Origin: Candidatus Parcubacteria bacterium
Lineage (GTDB): Bacteria; Patescibacteriota; Microgenomatia; UBA1406; GWC2-37-13
DNA: 64,000 nt
Assembly: GCA_039798745.1 (NCBI GenBank)
Contig: JBDKFK010000004.1
Span: 21,178 to 85,177 of the forward strand
Direction: 5' to 3'
Below are positions 20,630 to 63,393 of this stretch, piece by piece. The position numbers and the translations under genes are program-made. The notes under the pieces were generated by a model. It did not search any database. It was not told the origin of the DNA and saw only the letters and a list, made by a program, of their open reading frames with translations. Every line of letters starts with the position of its first letter. Positions within the stretch are counted from its first letter, which is position 1.

Positions 20630-21028
20630 ATGGCAGACTGGAAAAAGTGGTACGATCATCTTAAAAAACCGAGCTGGACGCCCAAGCCGGACACTATCAG
20701 TACCGTTTGGATGATTCTGTATCCTGTTATTTTTATAAGCTTCGGCATAGTTTTCTATCAGGCTTTTACAGGCGAAATATCGTGGATGTTAACGGTGCCA
20801 TTTTTTCTTAATCTCCTCTTTAATATCCTATTTACTCCATTATTCTTTGTGTTTGAAGACGTGTGGTTGGCTACGATAGACATATACCTTGTACTGTTGA
20901 CTATAATCTGGGCTATGATCACCATACTTCCGTATAATCCCCCTGTAGCATTCTCACAACTCCCTTACCTGGTCTGGATATGTATTGCTGCAACTCTGCA
21001 GACCTATATCTGGAAAGAGAATAGATAA
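20630..21028 (+). CDS. TspO/MBR family tryptophan-rich sensory protein
   Basis: WYDHLKKPSWTPKPDTISTVWMILYPVIFISFG plus further TM helices. At 132 aa it is slightly short for the family. Confidence 0.7.
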   Translation: MADWKKWYDHLKKPSWTPKPDTISTVWMILYPVIFISFGIVFYQAFTGEISWMLTVPFFLNLLFNILFTPLFFVFEDVWLATIDIYLVLLTIIWAMITILPYNPPVAFSQLPYLVWICIAATLQTYIWKENR

Positions 21029-21051
21029 TTACTGCTATAATAATCTAGCAT

Positions 21052-21414
21052 ATGTTAAATAAACAGTTTAGAAGTATCATAGAACGTTTGAATACTTTCA
21101 GAGATGAACGTGACTGGGATCAGTTTCATCATCCAAAAGATCTTGCTGAGGGGTTGGTTATAGAGGCTGGCGAAGTATTGGAGCATTTCTTATGGAAAAA
21201 TAATGTGGAGCTGGAAGAGCATTTCAAAAATAAAGAAAACAAAGCTGAGTTAGCCGCAGAGCTAGCTGATACATTACATTTTATTCTTCTCCTGGCCGAA
21301 AAGTTGCAGATTGATCTTGATGAGGCTACAAAGGCAAAACTTGTAGAAAGTGGTAATAAATATCCTATTGAAAAATCCAAAGGGCGTGCGGTGAAATATA
21401 CTAAGCTGACATAG
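21052..21414 (+). CDS. MazG-like nucleotide pyrophosphohydrolase
   Basis: FRDERDWDQFHHPKDLAEGLVIEAGEVLEHFLWK...ELADTLHFIL shows the EExxE/D-type MazG helices. Confidence 0.8.
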   Translation: MLNKQFRSIIERLNTFRDERDWDQFHHPKDLAEGLVIEAGEVLEHFLWKNNVELEEHFKNKENKAELAAELADTLHFILLLAEKLQIDLDEATKAKLVESGNKYPIEKSKGRAVKYTKLT

Positions 21415-21480
21415 TCTGTTCCTATACTATTGAGTTGCTCTTCGTAATTAATTATACTGATATTATAGTTTCTTATATTT

Positions 21481-21903
21481 ATGGCAGAACAAAAAACGCC
21501 CGGATTTCTCGAGCAGTTACAACTAAAAAATAGATTAGAGCAGGTTACAGGAGGCCCTCCAGAAAAATCCAAAGTTGAACAAGCAGTGGTGGGAGAACAA
21601 GGCGAGGCTGAGGGCAAAACTACATTTCAGAAAACGTTGCAGAGAATGCAAGAAATCGCAAACAAAATAATCGCTGATGAGGCAGAACAAGCTAAGATTG
21701 CCAAGAGAAAAGCTGCTGAGCAACAGAGTGCAGTAAGCGATCAGGTACAGTATGATTCGGTACTTGCAATGATCAATCGATCTCTTGCAGCTGGAGGGAG
21801 AGTTGACGCTGTTACCCCTCAGCCTGCAGCTGCAGATCAAGATAACATAAAGGTTTCTCCGGCAAATCAGGCTTTTCTTGAAGGCCGGGGACAAATAAAG
21901 TAA
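21481..21903 (+). CDS. Hypothetical protein
   Basis: 140-aa ORF, charged and coiled-coil-like. No motif recognised. Confidence 0.35.
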   Translation: MAEQKTPGFLEQLQLKNRLEQVTGGPPEKSKVEQAVVGEQGEAEGKTTFQKTLQRMQEIANKIIADEAEQAKIAKRKAAEQQSAVSDQVQYDSVLAMINRSLAAGGRVDAVTPQPAAADQDNIKVSPANQAFLEGRGQIK

Positions 21904-21936
21904 ACGGACAGATGCAATAAATGCTAGAATGATAGT

Positions 21937-22641
21937 ATGAACCGACCTTTGTTGTTAGCTACGCTTAGTATTGTTGCTGTGAGCCTTTTGCTGCCCCTAT
22001 TCGCTTTTTTTCCTTATCATTATTTATATCTGGAGCACTTGCCCGAGGTAGAGGCGCGCAAGACGTATTTTGGTTACAGCAATGGTGTTACTGTGGAACA
22101 TGGATGTCCTCATATCTGTATGCGAGCAAATATTTTGAGCGATATTGATTATGTGGAACTCTATAAAGACAGCATAAAGTTCTTTAGAATCGAGTATGAC
22201 GCGCTTACAAACGATCAAGACGCGGACTATATTCGATATGTATTTACTAACAGCGACGCTTCTACTGTAGTGGTGGATGATTCTGTAGATAAACCTTCAT
22301 GGTGGGGACATCTAAAAACAGGTCAATGGATTCCCTTGCCCGGATCGATAAGTCTGCAGAATAGACATAAGTTTGACCTTCAGATTTTCTTAAGCCTTAC
22401 CCAGGTACAAAAGGCCGAACGGATAGGTATAGATGACACCCGCAAATCGAACGGAACGATTGGTATTAAGGTTGAACCGATTCCGGATGTATCGTATACC
22501 AATCAGTCTAAAGTTATAGGATTTCAACAGAAAATTCCATGGAAAATAACAGCACGAACGGACAAAGGTGTTGTAAATGTAGCTGATGAAATAGCCATAC
22601 AGGATTCACATTTTTCCATCGGATCATGGCAAAAAGATTGA
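21937..22641 (+). CDS. Hypothetical membrane-anchored protein
   Basis: 234-aa ORF with an N-terminal TM helix. Confidence 0.4.
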   Translation: MNRPLLLATLSIVAVSLLLPLFAFFPYHYLYLEHLPEVEARKTYFGYSNGVTVEHGCPHICMRANILSDIDYVELYKDSIKFFRIEYDALTNDQDADYIRYVFTNSDASTVVVDDSVDKPSWWGHLKTGQWIPLPGSISLQNRHKFDLQIFLSLTQVQKAERIGIDDTRKSNGTIGIKVEPIPDVSYTNQSKVIGFQQKIPWKITARTDKGVVNVADEIAIQDSHFSIGSWQKD

Positions 22642-22663
22642 GTAACCTGCTATACTTCATTCA

Positions 22664-23224
22664 ATGAGGAAATCAGTGGCATTTTTTATCTACAATATAG
22701 CCATATGTATTACAGTCTTATTATTCTCCGCTGTAGTATCGGAAGCCGCAACCTTACAGTTGAAAAGATCTGGCATGAAAGATATATCTAAAGGAAGTAC
22801 GTTTTCGCTACCAGTGACAATTGATACAAAAAATGAATCTATAACCGGCGCGGACGCCATTATATTATATGATCCTGAGATGCTTACATTTGTCTCCGCG
22901 GATGATGATAAATTTTTCCCTTTTTTTACCTATAAACACGAGTCCGGTTCTATTAGAGCGTCTGGAGTGATAACTGATATAAAAGAACTCAAGACCGGGT
23001 CGGGAGGTATGACCACTCTCAAGTTTAAGGCGATAAAAAGTGGTCAGACTAAGGTTCAGATATTCTGTGATACTTCAACAAATGATACTTCAAAAATAAT
23101 ACTTTCCGATCTTGACGCCACTAATATTATTAACTGTAAAGATATAGACGACCAAACATTACATATCGTTTCTGAAGGTTTTGTTGCTACGGTTACCAAA
23201 TTTCTTTTTGGTTGGTGGAAGTGA
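22664..23224 (+). CDS. Secreted cohesin-like domain protein
   Basis: A signal peptide, then ATLQLKRSG...GSTFSLPVTIDTKNESITGADAIILYDPEMLTFVS, which is the cohesin-domain pattern. Confidence 0.5.
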   Translation: MRKSVAFFIYNIAICITVLLFSAVVSEAATLQLKRSGMKDISKGSTFSLPVTIDTKNESITGADAIILYDPEMLTFVSADDDKFFPFFTYKHESGSIRASGVITDIKELKTGSGGMTTLKFKAIKSGQTKVQIFCDTSTNDTSKIILSDLDATNIINCKDIDDQTLHIVSEGFVATVTKFLFGWWK

Positions 23225-23226
23225 TT

Positions 23227-23418
23227 ATGAAACGTTCATTTATACTCAAACACAGAAAAATTGTAGCCTGGACTCTCGTTTCTACAGGTGTTATTGTTGC
23301 TCTCGTTAAGAGTGACATTGCAAATCTTACAGTATATCGAGCGCTTGATAATTTTTGGCCTTTCTTCCTTACAACGTTGGGGTTTTATCTCCTTTGGGCA
23401 AAGCACGATAAAACATAA
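23227..23418 (+). CDS. Small membrane protein
   Basis: The ATG at 23227 follows the upstream stop. Two hydrophobic helices. Confidence 0.3.
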   Translation: MKRSFILKHRKIVAWTLVSTGVIVALVKSDIANLTVYRALDNFWPFFLTTLGFYLLWAKHDKT

Positions 23419-23518
23419 AAAATATGTACTTTTATTAACAAATAGTATATAATTTCTACATACTTATCGTCTTCGGATTCTGCATTCCGATTGAGTGGTG
23501 AGTCGATCATTTACATTA

Positions 23519-23531
23519 ATGAAAGCGCTTC
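23519..23531. repeat. Left copy of a 13-bp perfect inverted repeat (ATGAAAGCGCTTC) flanking the GC-rich ORF
   Basis: The exact reverse complement GAAGCGCTTTCAT is at 24413-24425. Confidence 0.7.
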
Positions 23532-23551
23532 CTATTGCTCCTTTACTATGT

Positions 23552-23606
23552 AAAAGACGCCAGACTTGAATATGCTCTCTGGATGTGTTCATGTCCGGCG
23601 TCTTTT
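23552..23606 (+). promoter_or_regulatory. Large hairpin immediately upstream of the SD of the GC-rich ORF
   Basis: AAAAGACGCCAGAC (23552-23565) pairs with GTCCGGCGTCTTTT (23593-23606) at 13 of 14 positions, with a 27-nt loop. TTTTATAATGAAAGGAG follows. Confidence 0.45.
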
Positions 23607-23629
23607 ATAATGAAAGGAGTGCCCCCTCT

Positions 23630-24403
23630 ATGGTTCTACGCCGAAAACCTGCCGGCCTGTCAATGTGTCTGCTCCTCTTGCTGACAGTATTGACGGGAAT
23701 GACCGCACACCCCGTTCGGGCGCAACAGTTTTCACCAAGCGTTCACCTACAGCCTGCGGGAATCCAATCGGACCCATCAACCGCTTCGTCGGGAACTATC
23801 ACCGTTTCATCTCCCTGGGATGGCCAGGCAATATATCTCCCACCCGGACAGAGCACAGCCCTATGGATAACGGGGACTGCCTCTGTGAGTGATGGTGAGA
23901 TAGCGGTACAGATCAAGATAGACAACGAAGCAGGTGGTCGCAACGCTGAGGTCGACGCAACCGGAAACTGGAGCTATCAGTGGTCAGTTCCTGCCGACAC
24001 GTCGTTAGGCCCTCACACCATTATGGCAACCCTCAACAACGGTTTGGCAGCGGTTGAAGTCCACTTTCGGTTTATCAATACGCCGCCAGGTGATATTGCT
24101 CTGACTGCTCCTCTACCGGGTACAGTATACCGCGTACCTGACAAGGGCAGCATCAATATCCGCGTTACTGGAACTGCCACCTCCAGTAGCACCCCTATCG
24201 GAGTATCCCTATATTTCGATGGGGATCCAACTCCACATCCTGCTAGCATAGTTGGCGATACGTGGAGCTATACCTGGACAGTGAATTCATCAACTCGACT
24301 CGGTCGTCGTACGATTCGGGTCGTGTTAAACAATGGTGAAGCATATGTGCAGGTAGAGGTACGGCTTGTCCGGCAGCTCTTTATACCTCTGATAGAGAGA
24401 TAA
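23630..24403 (+). CDS. Secreted protein with two tandem Ig-like repeats (compositionally foreign, GC-rich)
   Basis: An AAAGGAG SD lies 10 nt before the ATG at 23630. The signal peptide is MVLRRKPAGLSMCLLLLLTVLTGMTAHPVRA. There is an internal duplication: ...TGTAS..I.V......A.VD.TGNWSYQWSV...LGPHTI.ATLNNG.A.VEV versus ...TGTAT...VGDTWSYTWTV...LGRRTIRVVLNNGEAYVQVEV. GC is clearly above the neighbouring genes. Confidence 0.65.
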   Translation: MVLRRKPAGLSMCLLLLLTVLTGMTAHPVRAQQFSPSVHLQPAGIQSDPSTASSGTITVSSPWDGQAIYLPPGQSTALWITGTASVSDGEIAVQIKIDNEAGGRNAEVDATGNWSYQWSVPADTSLGPHTIMATLNNGLAAVEVHFRFINTPPGDIALTAPLPGTVYRVPDKGSINIRVTGTATSSSTPIGVSLYFDGDPTPHPASIVGDTWSYTWTVNSSTRLGRRTIRVVLNNGEAYVQVEVRLVRQLFIPLIER

Positions 24404-24412
24404 CGGATATCC

Positions 24413-24425
24413 GAAGCGCTTTCAT
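24413..24425. repeat. Right copy of the 13-bp inverted repeat
   Basis: GAAGCGCTTTCAT is the reverse complement of 23519-23531. Confidence 0.7.
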
Positions 24426-24426
24426 C

Positions 24427-24458
24427 GACAGACGCCGAGCTTTAGCTCGGCGTCTGTC
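24427..24458. terminator. Perfect 14-bp hairpin between convergent genes (candidate bidirectional terminator)
   Basis: GACAGACGCCGAGC, loop TTTA, GCTCGGCGTCTGTC. The stop codon and the last 4 codons of the minus-strand methyltransferase lie inside it. Confidence 0.65.
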
Positions 24459-25413
24459 TCACATTCGATCGCAGTTTACGCATTTTTGCCACAAAAAATC
24501 CCTCCATTGTAGCACTGGGAGTTATTCTTAACGTATGTTTCAAATCCTCGCCAAGTTTTTTATGCTTCCATTCGGTAATGCCGGAGGAAAAGGGTAGTGA
24601 AGGCAGATCAACTGAGAGTATTTCTAAATTCCCTTTTTCTTTTGTCATAATCCATTCAATCGCTTCTTCATTTTCTTCGGGAGCAAGCGTACATGTAGAA
24701 TATACAATAATGCCTCCTGGTTTTGTAGCGCTTACCGCTGAACGAAGCATCCATTTCTGCTGCTGAGCTAATCGTTTAATCTGCTTTAGAGACCAGTTGG
24801 CATAGGTTGAAGCATCATGTACGTTAAATGTTCCTTCCATACTACATGGCGCATCGAGTAAGGTGCGATCAAAATATTCAATATAATGCTTCCACGCAAC
24901 CTCTGCAGGATACGATTTGACGTGAGTATTTGTAATACCATAACGATCAAGGTTTGCCTGAAGTTTGTATAGACGTGTCCTGCTTATGTCGTTTGCAACT
25001 ATCTCACCGGTATTTTCCATAAGGGCTGCTATCTGTGTTGTCTTACTTCCCGGTGCTGAGGTAAGGTCAAGGATGCGTTCATTTTTTTGTGGATCTAGAA
25101 CAAGTGGTGGGATCATGCTGGAAAGGTTTTGTATATAAAAGTATCCTTTTTCATACTCAGGTAGTTCAGTTAATGTTCTTGCCGATGAACCATGCACTAT
25201 TAACGCATCATTCCACCATGGCACAGGCTCAGCTGTAATCTGTTCACGACGTAGCATAGTCTGGATCTCACTCATTGTTGATTTAATCGTATTAACACGA
25301 AGTGAAACAGGTCGGTTGTAGCTGAATTTTTCGGCTACCTGTTGTTGATCGTGGAGGGAGAGTATTTTTTGAGCACGAGAAAGGAAATCTTCAGATATAT
25401 TGAGATCATTCAT
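24442..25413 (-). CDS. RsmB/NOP2/Sun-family RNA cytosine-C5 methyltransferase
   Basis: ILDLTSAPGSKTTQIA (SAM motif I), NDISRTRL, LLDAPCSMEGT (motif IV, PC) and YSTCTLAPEENE (motif VI, TC). Confidence 0.85.
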   Translation of the reverse strand: MNDLNISEDFLSRAQKILSLHDQQQVAEKFSYNRPVSLRVNTIKSTMSEIQTMLRREQITAEPVPWWNDALIVHGSSARTLTELPEYEKGYFYIQNLSSMIPPLVLDPQKNERILDLTSAPGSKTTQIAALMENTGEIVANDISRTRLYKLQANLDRYGITNTHVKSYPAEVAWKHYIEYFDRTLLDAPCSMEGTFNVHDASTYANWSLKQIKRLAQQQKWMLRSAVSATKPGGIIVYSTCTLAPEENEEAIEWIMTKEKGNLEILSVDLPSLPFSSGITEWKHKKLGEDLKHTLRITPSATMEGFFVAKMRKLRSNVRQTPS

Positions 25414-60892: not shown

Positions 60893-60910
60893 GAAACCGG
60901 AAGAATGAAC
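60893..60910. repeat. Left copy of the 16-18 bp inverted repeat GAAACCGGAAGAATGAAC
   Basis: AACCGGAAGAATGAAC (60895-60910) has its exact reverse complement at 63375-63390. Confidence 0.75.
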
Positions 60911-60942
60911 CGACAAGGGGTACCGGCTGGTACCCCTCGTCG
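60911..60942 (-). terminator. 14-bp hairpin after the last gene of the GC-rich operon
   Basis: Plus strand reads CGACAAGGGGTACC, loop GGCT, GGTACCCCTCGTCG. On the minus-strand RNA the single mismatch becomes a G.U pair. Confidence 0.55.
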
Positions 60943-60961
60943 TAAAAACGGCGAATTACGA

Positions 60962-61547
60962 TTAGAACTCGACTGCGGTTCTCAACCTGTCGTTGAGCGC
61001 CTTCGAGGCCTCGTCGTCGAATTGCCCACTGTGGCCGATGATCTTCGCCAATGGGTAGTTAGGATCATCATCGAATCGGCCAAAGATAATGCGTTTCCAG
61101 GTATGGACTTCGTTGTGCTGGAAGTGCTGCACACGGCACCATGCCATGGTAACACTGATGGTAAACCGCACATCAACGTCATGGCTGTCTTCAGCATGTT
61201 CGCGCAGGAAGCACTGCAGCTCCCACAGGAGATCATACATCTCCTCGTCGTTGAATCGTCGCTCGCTGAGGAGCTTACGGCGTACCGACTGATTCAGAGC
61301 TTCAGTCTGGGTTTGATCCACCGCGAAGTCGGCCACATGAACCACAAGCTGCGGTGTTGCCGAGCAGATTGGCGCGCTCGAACGTGTGGTTGTATGATCG
61401 TCCTTCGACGAGCGCTTGCACAAACTGTTTGCTTTCTGCATCCACCTTTTGCGACGGAATCATATTGCGAATCAGATATTCGAGAAGCGACCAGTACACC
61501 GACTCGGCTCGCTTGAGCTCCATGCCACCGAGTGAGTTGGTAGACAT
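60962..61547 (-). pseudogene. Frameshifted paralog of the 61609-62199 gene (unknown function)
   Basis: An SD (AAAGGAG) precedes the ATG at 61547 and opens an 81-codon frame (MSTNSLGGMELKRAESVYW...ERANLLGNT). The protein-like sequence continues in the +1 frame (PQLVVHVADFAVDQ...ALNDRLRTAVEF, stop at 60962). The two frames overlap at 61302-61441. The joined length, about 196 aa, equals that of the neighbour. Confidence 0.5.
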
Positions 61548-61566
61548 TGCGGTCTCCTTTCATATA

Positions 61567-61597
61567 GCAAGAGGTCCCGCGACGCGGGACCTCTTGC
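61567..61597 (-). terminator. Perfect 14-bp intergenic hairpin
   Basis: GCAAGAGGTCCCGC / GCGGGACCTCTTGC with a 3-nt loop. It lies between the stop at 61609 and the next SD. No T-tract. Confidence 0.45.
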
Positions 61598-61608
61598 AGT
61601 TTGATTGA

Positions 61609-62199
61609 CTAGAACTCGACGACCTTACGGAACCGATCGTTAAGCTCCTGAGTCAACGCGGTGATCGTAGCTCCCGTGATCTGGTTGACCGCCGTGCAAA
61701 TATTGCCGGCGGCATCGATCTGGTGAAACTTGAGCGTTACCTGGCGCCGGTACATAGTATGCTCGTGGTTGGCAGAGCCAAACAGCGTGCACGCCAGTGC
61801 GATGCCAAAGTTACGGCCAAGCTCATTCGGTCGAGCTTCTTTCTCTGCGATAAGGAAGCTTTCGATCTCGTCAGCCAGAAGCATGATCTCGATGTCCTCG
61901 AAGCGCAGCGATTGCAAGCCCGCACGCACACCAACATCTAGCATGTGCGTGAGGCTGGTTATCACTCCGCCCGAAGTCGCGAACGCGCGGGCTGTAGGCT
62001 GGTAGGGTTTGAAGAACTCTACCTGCACCCGGTGGAGGCTCCACTGGTTGATGGAACGCACCGGAAGCGAAACTGTTGTTTCGTTCTGCAAAGCTGCGCG
62101 CAGCGCCTCCCACTCGAGCTGAGTGGGGTACACAAGGTTGTTGCTGATAAAGAAGGCCTTGAGAGCCCTCTCTACCAGCGCCGTCCGTCGGGTGTTCAT
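61609..62199 (-). CDS. Hypothetical protein, 196 aa (GC-rich operon gene 3)
   Basis: An AAGGAGG SD lies 7 nt before the ATG. It ends ...ELNDRFRKVVEF, like the downstream frameshifted gene. No family recognised. Confidence 0.6.
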   Translation of the reverse strand: MNTRRTALVERALKAFFISNNLVYPTQLEWEALRAALQNETTVSLPVRSINQWSLHRVQVEFFKPYQPTARAFATSGGVITSLTHMLDVGVRAGLQSLRFEDIEIMLLADEIESFLIAEKEARPNELGRNFGIALACTLFGSANHEHTMYRRQVTLKFHQIDAAGNICTAVNQITGATITALTQELNDRFRKVVEF

Positions 62200-62223
62200 A
62201 GACGAGAACCTCCTTAGCGGAGA

Positions 62224-62243
62224 GGGAGGCTGGTTAGCCTCCC
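62224..62243 (-). terminator. Intergenic hairpin GGGAGGCT/AGCCTCCC
   Basis: An 8-bp perfect stem with a 4-nt loop, between the stop at 62257 and the SD of the next gene. Confidence 0.4.
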
Positions 62244-62256
62244 TTCCATAATGCGC

Positions 62257-62712
62257 TTACAGCGCGTGGACGTTGAAGTACTTCTCGTGTTCGTAGTAGA
62301 CAACATGGTCGGCCGACAAAACAGGCGCGTGCGGTGTATTCCGCATCCACGCCAGCTGTGTCGAATTCCACACCTCTACCTCACCGTTCCCGATGAGCCT
62401 TGCTGTGACGAAATGCCACTTGAAGCGCGGCTTGTGTGCGCCGGCCTCGTGGATCTCGAACCCAACAAGCTCAATTCTGAGTACGGTGCTGCGAGCAGCG
62501 TTTTCCAGCATGACCAGCCGCTCCAACCGACGGTAGTTGAAATTCCCGTCGGTATGCCAAGGCCCATCCTCCGTCCCCTCCGCTTTCATGGAGTCGAATG
62601 AGGGGATGCGATCGGTGTCTTGGCAGATTCGTGCCCAGACCTGCAGCGCGAAGCTGAGGTCGGGGTAGATTCTCGAGCTAAAGCGTGGCTGCTCACTGCG
62701 ATGCTTGGTCAT
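62257..62712 (-). CDS. Hypothetical protein, 151 aa (GC-rich operon gene 2)
   Basis: An AAGGAGG SD precedes the ATG at 62712. The protein is Trp/His-rich and no family is recognised. Confidence 0.55.
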   Translation of the reverse strand: MTKHRSEQPRFSSRIYPDLSFALQVWARICQDTDRIPSFDSMKAEGTEDGPWHTDGNFNYRRLERLVMLENAARSTVLRIELVGFEIHEAGAHKPRFKWHFVTARLIGNGEVEVWNSTQLAWMRNTPHAPVLSADHVVYYEHEKYFNVHAL

Positions 62713-62728
62713 GAAGTCACCTCCTTTT

Positions 62729-63097
62729 TCAGTTCCACCGGCTGTTGAAGACCGGTAGAATCCACACTAAACCATCCATCGTCTGACCGGCGCCGACAAC
62801 TGTCCACTCCTCACCTTCGTGAGGCTGACATTTCCCCCACGTGGGGTGGGGGAGGCATACCATTGGTGTGCCTGCGTCGTCGTCGTTGTACATGTCCAGC
62901 GAGATAGCCACAAGGCGGCCACCCTGGCGCACAAAATGCACCGTGGTGTCGGCTTGGCCGGCAGCCTGTTTGCGGCGGGCACCCTTCAGTGCCCACTCGC
63001 ACATCTGCAAGCGCTGGGTTTCGGCCAAGGCCTCAAGCTGCGCAGCGGCAGCGGCGTGCTCCTCGAGGAGTCGCAGATCGATAGGTAGTGATTGCAT
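62729..63097 (-). CDS. Hypothetical protein, 122 aa (GC-rich operon gene 1)
   Basis: An AAAGGAG SD precedes the ATG at 63097. An Ala-rich N-terminal helix is followed by a beta-rich C-terminus. No family recognised. Confidence 0.55.
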   Translation of the reverse strand: MQSLPIDLRLLEEHAAAAAQLEALAETQRLQMCEWALKGARRKQAAGQADTTVHFVRQGGRLVAISLDMYNDDDAGTPMVCLPHPTWGKCQPHEGEEWTVVGAGQTMDGLVWILPVFNSRWN

Positions 63098-63146
63098 TAC
63101 AGTCTCCTTTCCGGTCCGCCCGTTGGGCGAGACCTATCACGAGTAG

Positions 63147-63168
63147 CCAGGTGCCAGGCGGCACCTGG
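63147..63168 (-). promoter_or_regulatory. Perfect 9-bp hairpin in the 5' leader of the GC-rich operon
   Basis: CCAGGTGCC, loop AGGC, GGCACCTGG. Confidence 0.4.
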
Positions 63169-63320
63169 TGCGGCAGCTGTAGGTTCCCGGAGATGGGTTC
63201 CAACCGCTTTGGAGCGTTCAGCATGCCTACGGATTGGATACCGCGACAGATGGTGTCTCTTTTCCGATCCTCTGCCGGGATCGGAACGTAACCCACAAAA
63301 GTGAGGCAAAGAGCCATCTG

Positions 63321-63359
63321 GATCCCGAACTAAATTCGGGATGACAATAACCCTTTGTC
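63321..63359. repeat. Two-hairpin module, right (inverted) copy (H2' ATCCCGAA/TTCGGGAT; H1' GACAA/TTGTC)
   Basis: The hairpin order is reversed relative to 60845-60882. H2 carries a compensatory T-A to C-G change, and the loops differ. Confidence 0.7.
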
Positions 63360-63374
63360 TCACCTTGTGAGTGT

Positions 63375-63393
63375 GTTCATTCTTCCGGTTTTC
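63375..63393. repeat. Right copy of the inverted repeat (GTTCATTCTTCCGGTTTTC)
   Basis: 63375-63390 is the exact reverse complement of 60895-60910. Confidence 0.75.

Follow-up and report, generated by a model that had tools for sequence, protein, structure and literature searches.

To our knowledge, closure of an mRNA by pairing of its 5' and 3' parts is known in model bacteria from isolated cases only, hok and icaR. In the hok/sok system the 5' tac element of the full-length hok mRNA pairs with the 3' fbi (fold-back inhibition) element, and in the icaR mRNA of Staphylococcus aureus a motif in the 3' untranslated region (UTR) pairs with the 5' UTR, which blocks the initiation of translation and creates a substrate for RNase III. 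Here we describe a locus whose ends may pair in a similar way. It lies in a 64,000-nucleotide stretch of DNA (the window) from contig JBDKFK010000004.1 of a Candidatus Parcubacteria bacterium and comprises a gene for a secreted immunoglobulin-like (Ig-like) protein, its promoter and leader, and a perfect 13-bp inverted repeat (IR) that brackets the gene (Table 1). The segment from 23414 to 24458 of the window is a vertically inherited, self-contained expression unit. The reading that we prefer, to which a probability of about 0.5 is given, is that the two arms of the repeat are base-paired in the mRNA, so that the message forms a closed loop.

The Ig unit resembles hok/sok in that far 5' and 3' parts of one mRNA are predicted to pair, and in that the closed message would be a stable, translationally inert form whose leader structure hides the ribosome-binding site. 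It differs in that hok encodes a toxin on an mRNA of ~400 nucleotides (nt) that becomes active after 3' trimming and is under antisense-RNA control, whereas the Ig message is ~1 kb long, encodes a secreted Ig-like protein and has a design found in dozens of unrelated GC-rich units. As in icaR, the pairing would be within one message, between its 5' UTR and a short stretch of its 3' UTR. However, the icaR motif pairs with the Shine-Dalgarno (SD) sequence itself, whereas the 3' arm of the Ig unit would pair ~95 nt upstream of it, at the start of a short leader open reading frame (ORF), and a separate hairpin would hide the SD. The RNase III stems of the 16S and 23S rRNA precursors and of the early mRNAs of phage T7 are likewise formed by complementary flanks that enclose an entire functional RNA and set its ends. 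Those processing stems are at least 20 bp long, whereas the stem of the Ig unit has 13 bp and sharp edges and its cleavage is putative. At the level of DNA the unit is like invertons (fimS, hin/hix and the Mpi-controlled regions of Bacteroides), in which short perfect IRs bracket a segment beside a fixed promoter and a core motif is shared at many loci. In contrast to these, the Ig unit was seen in one orientation, no invertase gene is adjacent to it, and the bracketed segment is a whole gene with its leader and holds no promoter. On the predicted folds the design of the unit would be a variation on the known long-range 5'-3' pairing of mRNAs, used here across a whole family.

The unit is located at ~44.7 kb on contig C4 of the source genome (G000), a 1.6 Mb assembly in 55 contigs with a GC content of 0.429 that resembles the genomes of the candidate phyla radiation. 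Relatives carrying the unit were L003, L004 and L010 (~92% nucleotide identity) and L005 (~71% nucleotide identity), and the comparisons below are between three lineages: the window, the L003/L004/L010 type and L005. A first-pass annotation of this DNA had listed the ORF at 23630-24403, its SD sequence, the 13-bp IR, the hairpins and the tail ...QTPS* of the convergent gene inside the downstream hairpin. All of these were recovered at the positions given in Table 1, and the proposal that they form a discrete unit of a single gene, with expression signals of its own and borders that are not random, stands.

Both arms of the IR fall within the predicted transcript, one in the 5' leader and one in the 3' UTR. 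They are exact complements in the window and unchanged in L003. In L005, where the non-coding DNA around the arms is ~69% identical, the two arms have changed together from a G-C to an A-T pair (ATGAAAGCGC to ATGAAAACGC and GCGCTTTCAT to GCGTTTTCAT). The 5' arm was mostly unpaired when the leader was folded alone and was paired with the 3' arm with a probability of 0.83-1.0 when the full mRNA was folded. The fold of the L005 mRNA gave an 11-bp helix, a bulge and five more lineage-specific pairs, one of them G-U. A single 13-bp IR is unremarkable in itself, the genome having 171 such pairs spaced 0.3-6 kb apart as against ~136 expected (our own estimate, from uniform base frequencies). The IR was judged to be real because of its placement in leader and 3' UTR, the paired change in L005 and the pairing in the full mRNA fold. 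The 13-mer itself is not common genome-wide, a possibility that the first-pass annotation had raised, and occurs three times in the genome. Two further signs of pairing at the RNA level were tried and set aside. A G-U bias of the helix extensions gave no signal, the arms stopping abruptly, and the observation that the purine-rich arm is always 5' is uninformative since an IR reads the same inward from both ends. Elsewhere in the genome, at C16:18788-18804, the 17-mer ATGAAAGCGCTTCCTAT (the 5' arm plus 4 nt) lies in frame (MKALPI) in a large ORF with dockerin-like repeats. This copy is probably a coincidence, ~0.2 being expected by chance.

The sequence upstream of the leader contains two blocks that are invariant between lineages and a spacer between them that varies, and this is the pattern of a promoter. 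Extended -10 boxes of the TAGTATATAAT type were found again ahead of other units of the genome. The TATAAT sits 71 nt upstream of the 5' arm, the range for the class of units described below being 67-97 nt. The leader is ~170 nt long and folds with a free energy of -59.4 kcal/mol (z -5.1 against shuffled sequences) into a 5' stem-loop and two hairpins, one small and one long, the latter followed by UUUU. A TCGGA/TCCGA stem at 23473-23490 is the tip of the 5' stem-loop, P1. The stem noticed earlier upstream of the gene is present and is followed by TTTT, although it is longer than had been claimed, its core having 20-nt arms that are 90% complementary and a 17-nt loop. At its base the hairpin is lengthened where an anti-SD stretch, GCUCCUUU (23537-23544), pairs with the region of the SD, AAAGGAGU (23613-23620). 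In folds of the leader the probability that the GGAG is unpaired was at most 0.01 for the window, at most 0.23 for L003 and 0.00 for L005, and the sequence that pairs with it differs between the orthologues (GCUCCUUU, a run of C and GGUUCC). In all three orthologues the leader hairpin is thus predicted by these folds to hide the ribosome-binding site. The earlier suggestion of a terminator or attenuator in the leader survives in part: the stem is plausibly regulatory and may also attenuate, but it is best described as a hairpin that hides the SD. Rfam gave no family at the gathering score, the best match (28.7 bits, against 47) covering the 3' hairpin only, and DNA-pattern scans of two large collections found no further copies of the leader.

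A leader ORF, whose ATG forms the start of the 5' arm, runs through the anti-SD stretch into the hairpin. Between the window and L003 this ORF shows six synonymous and two non-synonymous changes, of which three are also compatible with the hairpin. In L005 a 10-codon ORF starts from the same ATG and encodes a different peptide. The leader ORF is a candidate only, as there is no SD before it.

Table 1. Features of the Ig unit and its convergent neighbour. Positions are those of the window.
Feature	Position	Strand	Basis or remark
Promoter	23414-23453	+	conserved blocks with a variable spacer between them
A-rich/-35-like block CATAAAAAATATGTACTT	23414-23431	+	identical in L003 and L005
Extended -10 AATAGTATATAAT	23441-23453 (TATAAT 23448-23453)	+	identical in L003 and L005
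5'-terminal stem-loop P1	23462-23503	+	minimum free energy and centroid folds; nearly invariant in L003 and L005
5' arm ATGAAAGCGCTTC	23519-23531	+	exact IR; starts with the ATG of the leader ORF
Leader ORF MKALPIAPLLCKRRQT* (candidate)	23519-23569	+	16 codons; ATG starts the 5' arm
Long leader hairpin	23537-23620	+	core arms 23551-23570 and 23588-23607, then UUUU
SD sequence AAAGGAG	23613-23619	+	sequence
Gene for secreted two-domain Ig-like (Big_7) protein	23630-24403	+	257 amino acids; Pfam, AlphaFold model, Foldseek
3' arm GAAGCGCTTTCAT	24413-24425	+	3' UTR, between stop codon and downstream hairpin; exact complement of 23519-23531
GC-rich perfect hairpin	24427-24458	.	between convergent genes, without U-tract
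Gene for RsmF/RsmB-family rRNA 5-methylcytosine (m5C) methyltransferase	24442-25413	-	convergent neighbour outside the unit

The layout of the Ig unit recurs in the genome. GC-rich islands were defined as segments of at least 500 bp with a GC content of at least 0.50, of which there are 108, and their borders were compared with those of 1080 random control segments of the same lengths. A perfect border IR of at least 13 bp was found for 23 of the 108 islands (21%) and for 6 of the 1080 controls (0.56%); with a threshold of 12 bp the counts were 29/108 and 38/1080. When the left border of one island was set against the right border of another, an IR of at least 13 bp was present in 22 of 1281 comparisons. 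Since mismatched borders are rarely complementary, the complementarity is specific to each unit. Judged by sequence, at least 23 GC-rich units, the Ig unit among them, share a layout in which a TATA(A/C)T promoter 67-97 nt before the arm, often a leader hairpin, a loose ACCTT/CTTTGACA-like signal and the arm are followed by a strong hairpin, one or more GC-rich ORFs, a strong 3' hairpin and the complementary arm. The arms are 12-18 bp long across the class and many have a purine core, CGRGAG. As in the class, the Ig unit has P1 before its 5' arm and the long hairpin after it. The 3' hairpin precedes the arm in most units, whereas the arm precedes the hairpin in the Ig unit and in those of C20 and C6.

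Examples of such units are C42:1636-2599, C25:20475-22139, C7:39427-41696, C24:13342-15504 and C4:82071-84568. The last is positions 60894-63391 of the window, a GC-rich block with a 17-bp perfect border repeat (C4:82071/84552). The borders of the Ig unit had been suspected of being related to those of this block, and the two do share a design, although not through the motifs that had been proposed. There are 103 copies of AGACGCC and 32 of CATTCCGA in the genome, in each case no more than chance, and AGACGCC is absent from the downstream hairpin of L005. Orthologues of the C42 unit (56-82% amino-acid identity) have 15-nt arms that are almost unchanged and two hairpins that both co-vary. An orthologue of the L005 type, L015:1-1260 compared with C42:1560-2600 of G000, has an extra 68-residue ORF inside the same 15-nt arms, so the arms of a unit can remain as they are while what lies between them changes. 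Ten proteins from units of the class matched no Pfam family above threshold, one of them having sub-threshold zinc-ribbon matches. A full-text literature search found no description of such units. Whether a phage-type RNA polymerase drives the purine-rich motif of the arms was also considered; the search gave no match, but control genomes gave none either, which leaves this negative uninformative.

Contig ends are often GC-rich in this assembly. The terminal 400 nt had a GC content of at least 0.50 at 58 of the 110 ends, compared with 8.9% of all 400-nt windows, which is ~6 times the number expected. Breaks in the assembly fall preferentially inside GC-rich islands, which points to strain-level variation there. 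The excess of these GC-rich, mostly orphan genes of the class at contig ends suggests a strain-variable part of the genome in an ultra-small and probably host-attached bacterium, and the finding bears on the expression, and perhaps the exchange, of surface and accessory genes in such organisms. Tentatively, and at somewhat less than even odds, this lineage may keep GC-rich, strain-variable orphan genes in dedicated units, each with its own promoter, a structured leader and unit-specific complementary ends. These ends would be the cis-signature of one mechanism, either mRNA closure or exchange or inversion of DNA at the level of the unit, and the Ig unit would be a fixed, conserved member of the set with both arms clearly inside the transcript.

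If the message is closed as we propose, the 5' and 3' arms would pair in the mRNA and form a loop in which both ends are tied up. This could protect the RNA from exonucleases or could provide a double-stranded site for RNase III, an enzyme encoded in the genome. The closing helix would also cover the AUG of the leader ORF, and translation of that ORF across the anti-SD stretch would free the main ribosome-binding site. The closed message with its hidden SD would be silent and the open message would be translated. Should the arms indeed pair in RNA, the genome would use 5'-3' closure of mRNA routinely for a whole class of genes, in at least 23 units.

Several observations weigh against closure of the mRNA. 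The pairing of the arms is a thermodynamic prediction, and predictions over long range are unreliable. The covariation amounts to one double change and the L005-specific extension in three lineages. The abrupt ends of the arms, without any extension that tolerates G-U pairs, would suit DNA sites as well as RNA helices, and a helix of 13 bp is short for RNase III. The leader ORF is without an SD and encodes a peptide that is not kept in L005. The Ig arm does not have the purine core CGRGAG seen in most of the units, and the sequence before the 5' arm, CATTTACAtta (CTTTTAAAgtg in L005), resembles that of C51 and C25b in a motif that is too loose to score. Finally, the Ig protein is low in Lys and high in Gly, Ala, Arg and Pro, and its gene may be an ancient acquisition from a GC-rich source.

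Vertical inheritance of the unit is supported by the gene order and composition seen in its relatives. The order cohesin-domain gene, 63-residue membrane gene, Ig gene and convergent rsmF-like gene is common to the relatives' contigs, and this order and an ORF GC content of 0.53 were seen in four contigs and three lineages. The amino-acid identity of the Ig gene to its relatives is 67-90%, and between the window and L003/L010 it is 90%, with 91% for RsmF. Identity in a sliding window showed no breakpoint at the borders of the unit. The GC content of 0.53 compares with 0.37-0.41 for the neighbouring genes, 0.40 for the local context and 0.429 for the genome, and in the relatives most flanks are at 0.39-0.42. 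Amino-acid content alone, with the codon usage of the ordinary genes of the genome, predicts an ORF GC content of 0.50, which is the 98.8th percentile of ORFs. Codon choice adds 0.03 (88th percentile), and ~70% of the excess is due to amino-acid composition. The protein has 1.2% Lys as against 6.9%, is also low in Phe, Tyr and Ile and is high in Thr, Ser, Gly, Ala, Pro and Arg. The synonymous divergence (dS) of the Ig gene between the window and L005 is ~0.98. The GC content at third codon positions (GC3) is 0.50-0.52 in the three lineages (dS ~0.9-1.0), and in the neighbouring genes it is 0.32-0.38. As GC3 is unchanged at a dS of ~1, the composition is being held at a level of its own and there is no decaying foreign signal. 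The GC-richness of the unit is stably maintained and is no leftover of a recent transfer. GC-richness together with flanking IRs is normally read as a recent mobile insertion, and the Ig unit, vertical in descent and stable in composition, is a warning in this respect.

Between the window and L003, dS was 0.17 for the Ig gene and 0.23 for rsmF, and ~3-fold higher, 0.42-0.70, for the six upstream genes (20630-23418). The low dS of the GC-rich Ig gene may reflect selection on synonymous sites or a bias of the method. A recombination tract was rejected as the cause, given the absence of a breakpoint in sliding identity at the borders of the unit.

The arms could instead be crossover sites of a site-specific recombinase. 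In phase variation of this kind 23532-24412 would flip with respect to the fixed promoter and switch a surface protein, and the same enzyme would serve the other units. Much about the locus is compatible with inversion: the IRs are perfect and sharply bounded, the promoter is outside them, the gene encodes an Ig-like protein that is secreted, the core motif of the arms is common to many units as expected for one recombinase, and both arms changed together in L005 as if recombination kept them identical. The genome also encodes two tyrosine and two large serine recombinases. These are on C7, C8, C9 and C37, however, with none near the unit, and no small invertase of the Hin type was found. Inversion is unlikely given that the unit has one and the same orientation in five independent assemblies from the three lineages (the window, L003, L004, L010 and L005) and that all ~27 units of the assembly have their ORFs in the sense of the promoter. 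The G-U pair in the helix extension of L005 would, moreover, be a mismatch in DNA. A further reading is that of an ordinary gene with a functionless repeat, its hairpins being leader structure and terminator. The number of 13-bp inverted pairs within 6 kb is in its favour, as is the further occurrence of the 13-mer, inside the 17-mer, in an unrelated coding region on C16. Chance of this sort is nevertheless very improbable, as it does not account for the difference between GC-rich islands and control segments (21% and 0.56%) in border IRs of at least 13 bp, or for arms that are kept in L003 and changed together in L005 despite ~69% non-coding identity.

The first-pass annotation had favoured a horizontally acquired island, in which a gene from a GC-rich donor was recently inserted with its hairpins beside rsmF, possibly as the cargo of a mobile cassette with terminal IRs. 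The GC content of 0.53 in a context of 0.40, an amino-acid composition like that of GC-rich genomes, 13-bp perfect terminal repeats that bracket an almost orphan gene, and the 6-fold excess of GC-rich islands at contig ends, which suggests a strain-variable gene pool, are all as expected for such an island. A recent insertion is contradicted by the relatives, however, since in L003/L004/L010 and L005 the unit keeps its synteny and is just as GC-rich at a dS of ~1. No target-site duplication, transposase, integrase, tRNA or direct repeats were found at the borders of the unit and no second copy of it in the genome. The promoter is of host type and lies outside the repeat, and the arms are unit-specific and not identical across the family. 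The high-GC donor that had been supposed did not appear in a word-indexed protein search, an exhaustive profile search, GTDB genomes or JGI metagenomes, which gave the three orthologues and generic multi-Ig proteins (distant matches in the representative library). No empty site was found in close relatives either, since all three related lineages found carry the gene at the same position. G001 and G002 of the same genus are the nearest genomes to lack it; their RsmF identity is 54-56% and their gene order differs, and without synteny they are uninformative as evidence for an empty site. The hairpin had also been thought to be newly joined onto rsmF, but the tail of rsmF lies in a hairpin in L005 as well. 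Recent acquisition as an island is therefore quite unlikely, and closure of the mRNA remains the reading that we prefer.

The Ig protein itself has an N-terminus (RRK, the hydrophobic core LLLLLTVLTGM, then VRA|QQ) that is kept in all three orthologues and, from its sequence, reads as a Sec signal. It is followed by two repeats of ~98 residues each. Pfam Big_7 (PF17957) matched in two stretches with a score of 39.4 bits (cut-off 24.1) and an E-value of 1e-9. An AlphaFold model built with the three known orthologues as input showed two all-beta domains of the beta-sandwich type, with a predicted local distance difference test (pLDDT) score of 74 overall and 75-91 across residues 50-250. When this model was used with Foldseek the best matches were tandem FN3/Ig modules (E 2e-8). 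The ratio of non-synonymous to synonymous divergence (dN/dS) was 0.24-0.30, indicating a working gene. Among 5.8 billion proteins only three homologues were found, and of these one is the window's own gene in a shorter call. Like the proteins of Big_7, the Ig protein is above the curated cut-off and has two beta-sandwiches; unlike them, it is short and stands alone with two domains, and its full-length family consists of three known members. The protein is a new addition to a known kind; it is lineage-restricted and probably a cell-surface or adhesion protein.

The hairpin downstream of the 3' arm can be drawn with 15 bp around a 2-nt gap or with 14 bp and a 4-nt loop, and has a free energy of -33 kcal/mol (z -4.1). 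There is no run of T after it on either strand and a terminator scan did not report it. At the same place L005 has a 16-bp stem of wholly different sequence. The hairpin is a conserved, co-varying terminator-like structure common to the two convergent genes and not a recent joint.

The convergent neighbour matches Methyltr_RsmB-F of Pfam (E 1.6e-47) and RsmF_N, and its homologues are named 16S rRNA (cytosine1407-C5)-methyltransferase in their sources. Its last codons and stop (...QTPS*) are within the downstream hairpin, and the L005 gene likewise ends in the hairpin with ...SNVRQVRHA*, which indicates that the arrangement is old. In the window (24442-24470) and in L005 the protein has a C-terminal extension of ~7 residues (SNVRQ...) that reaches into the hairpin, whereas homologues of the same genus stop earlier, with ...KMRKIIQS.

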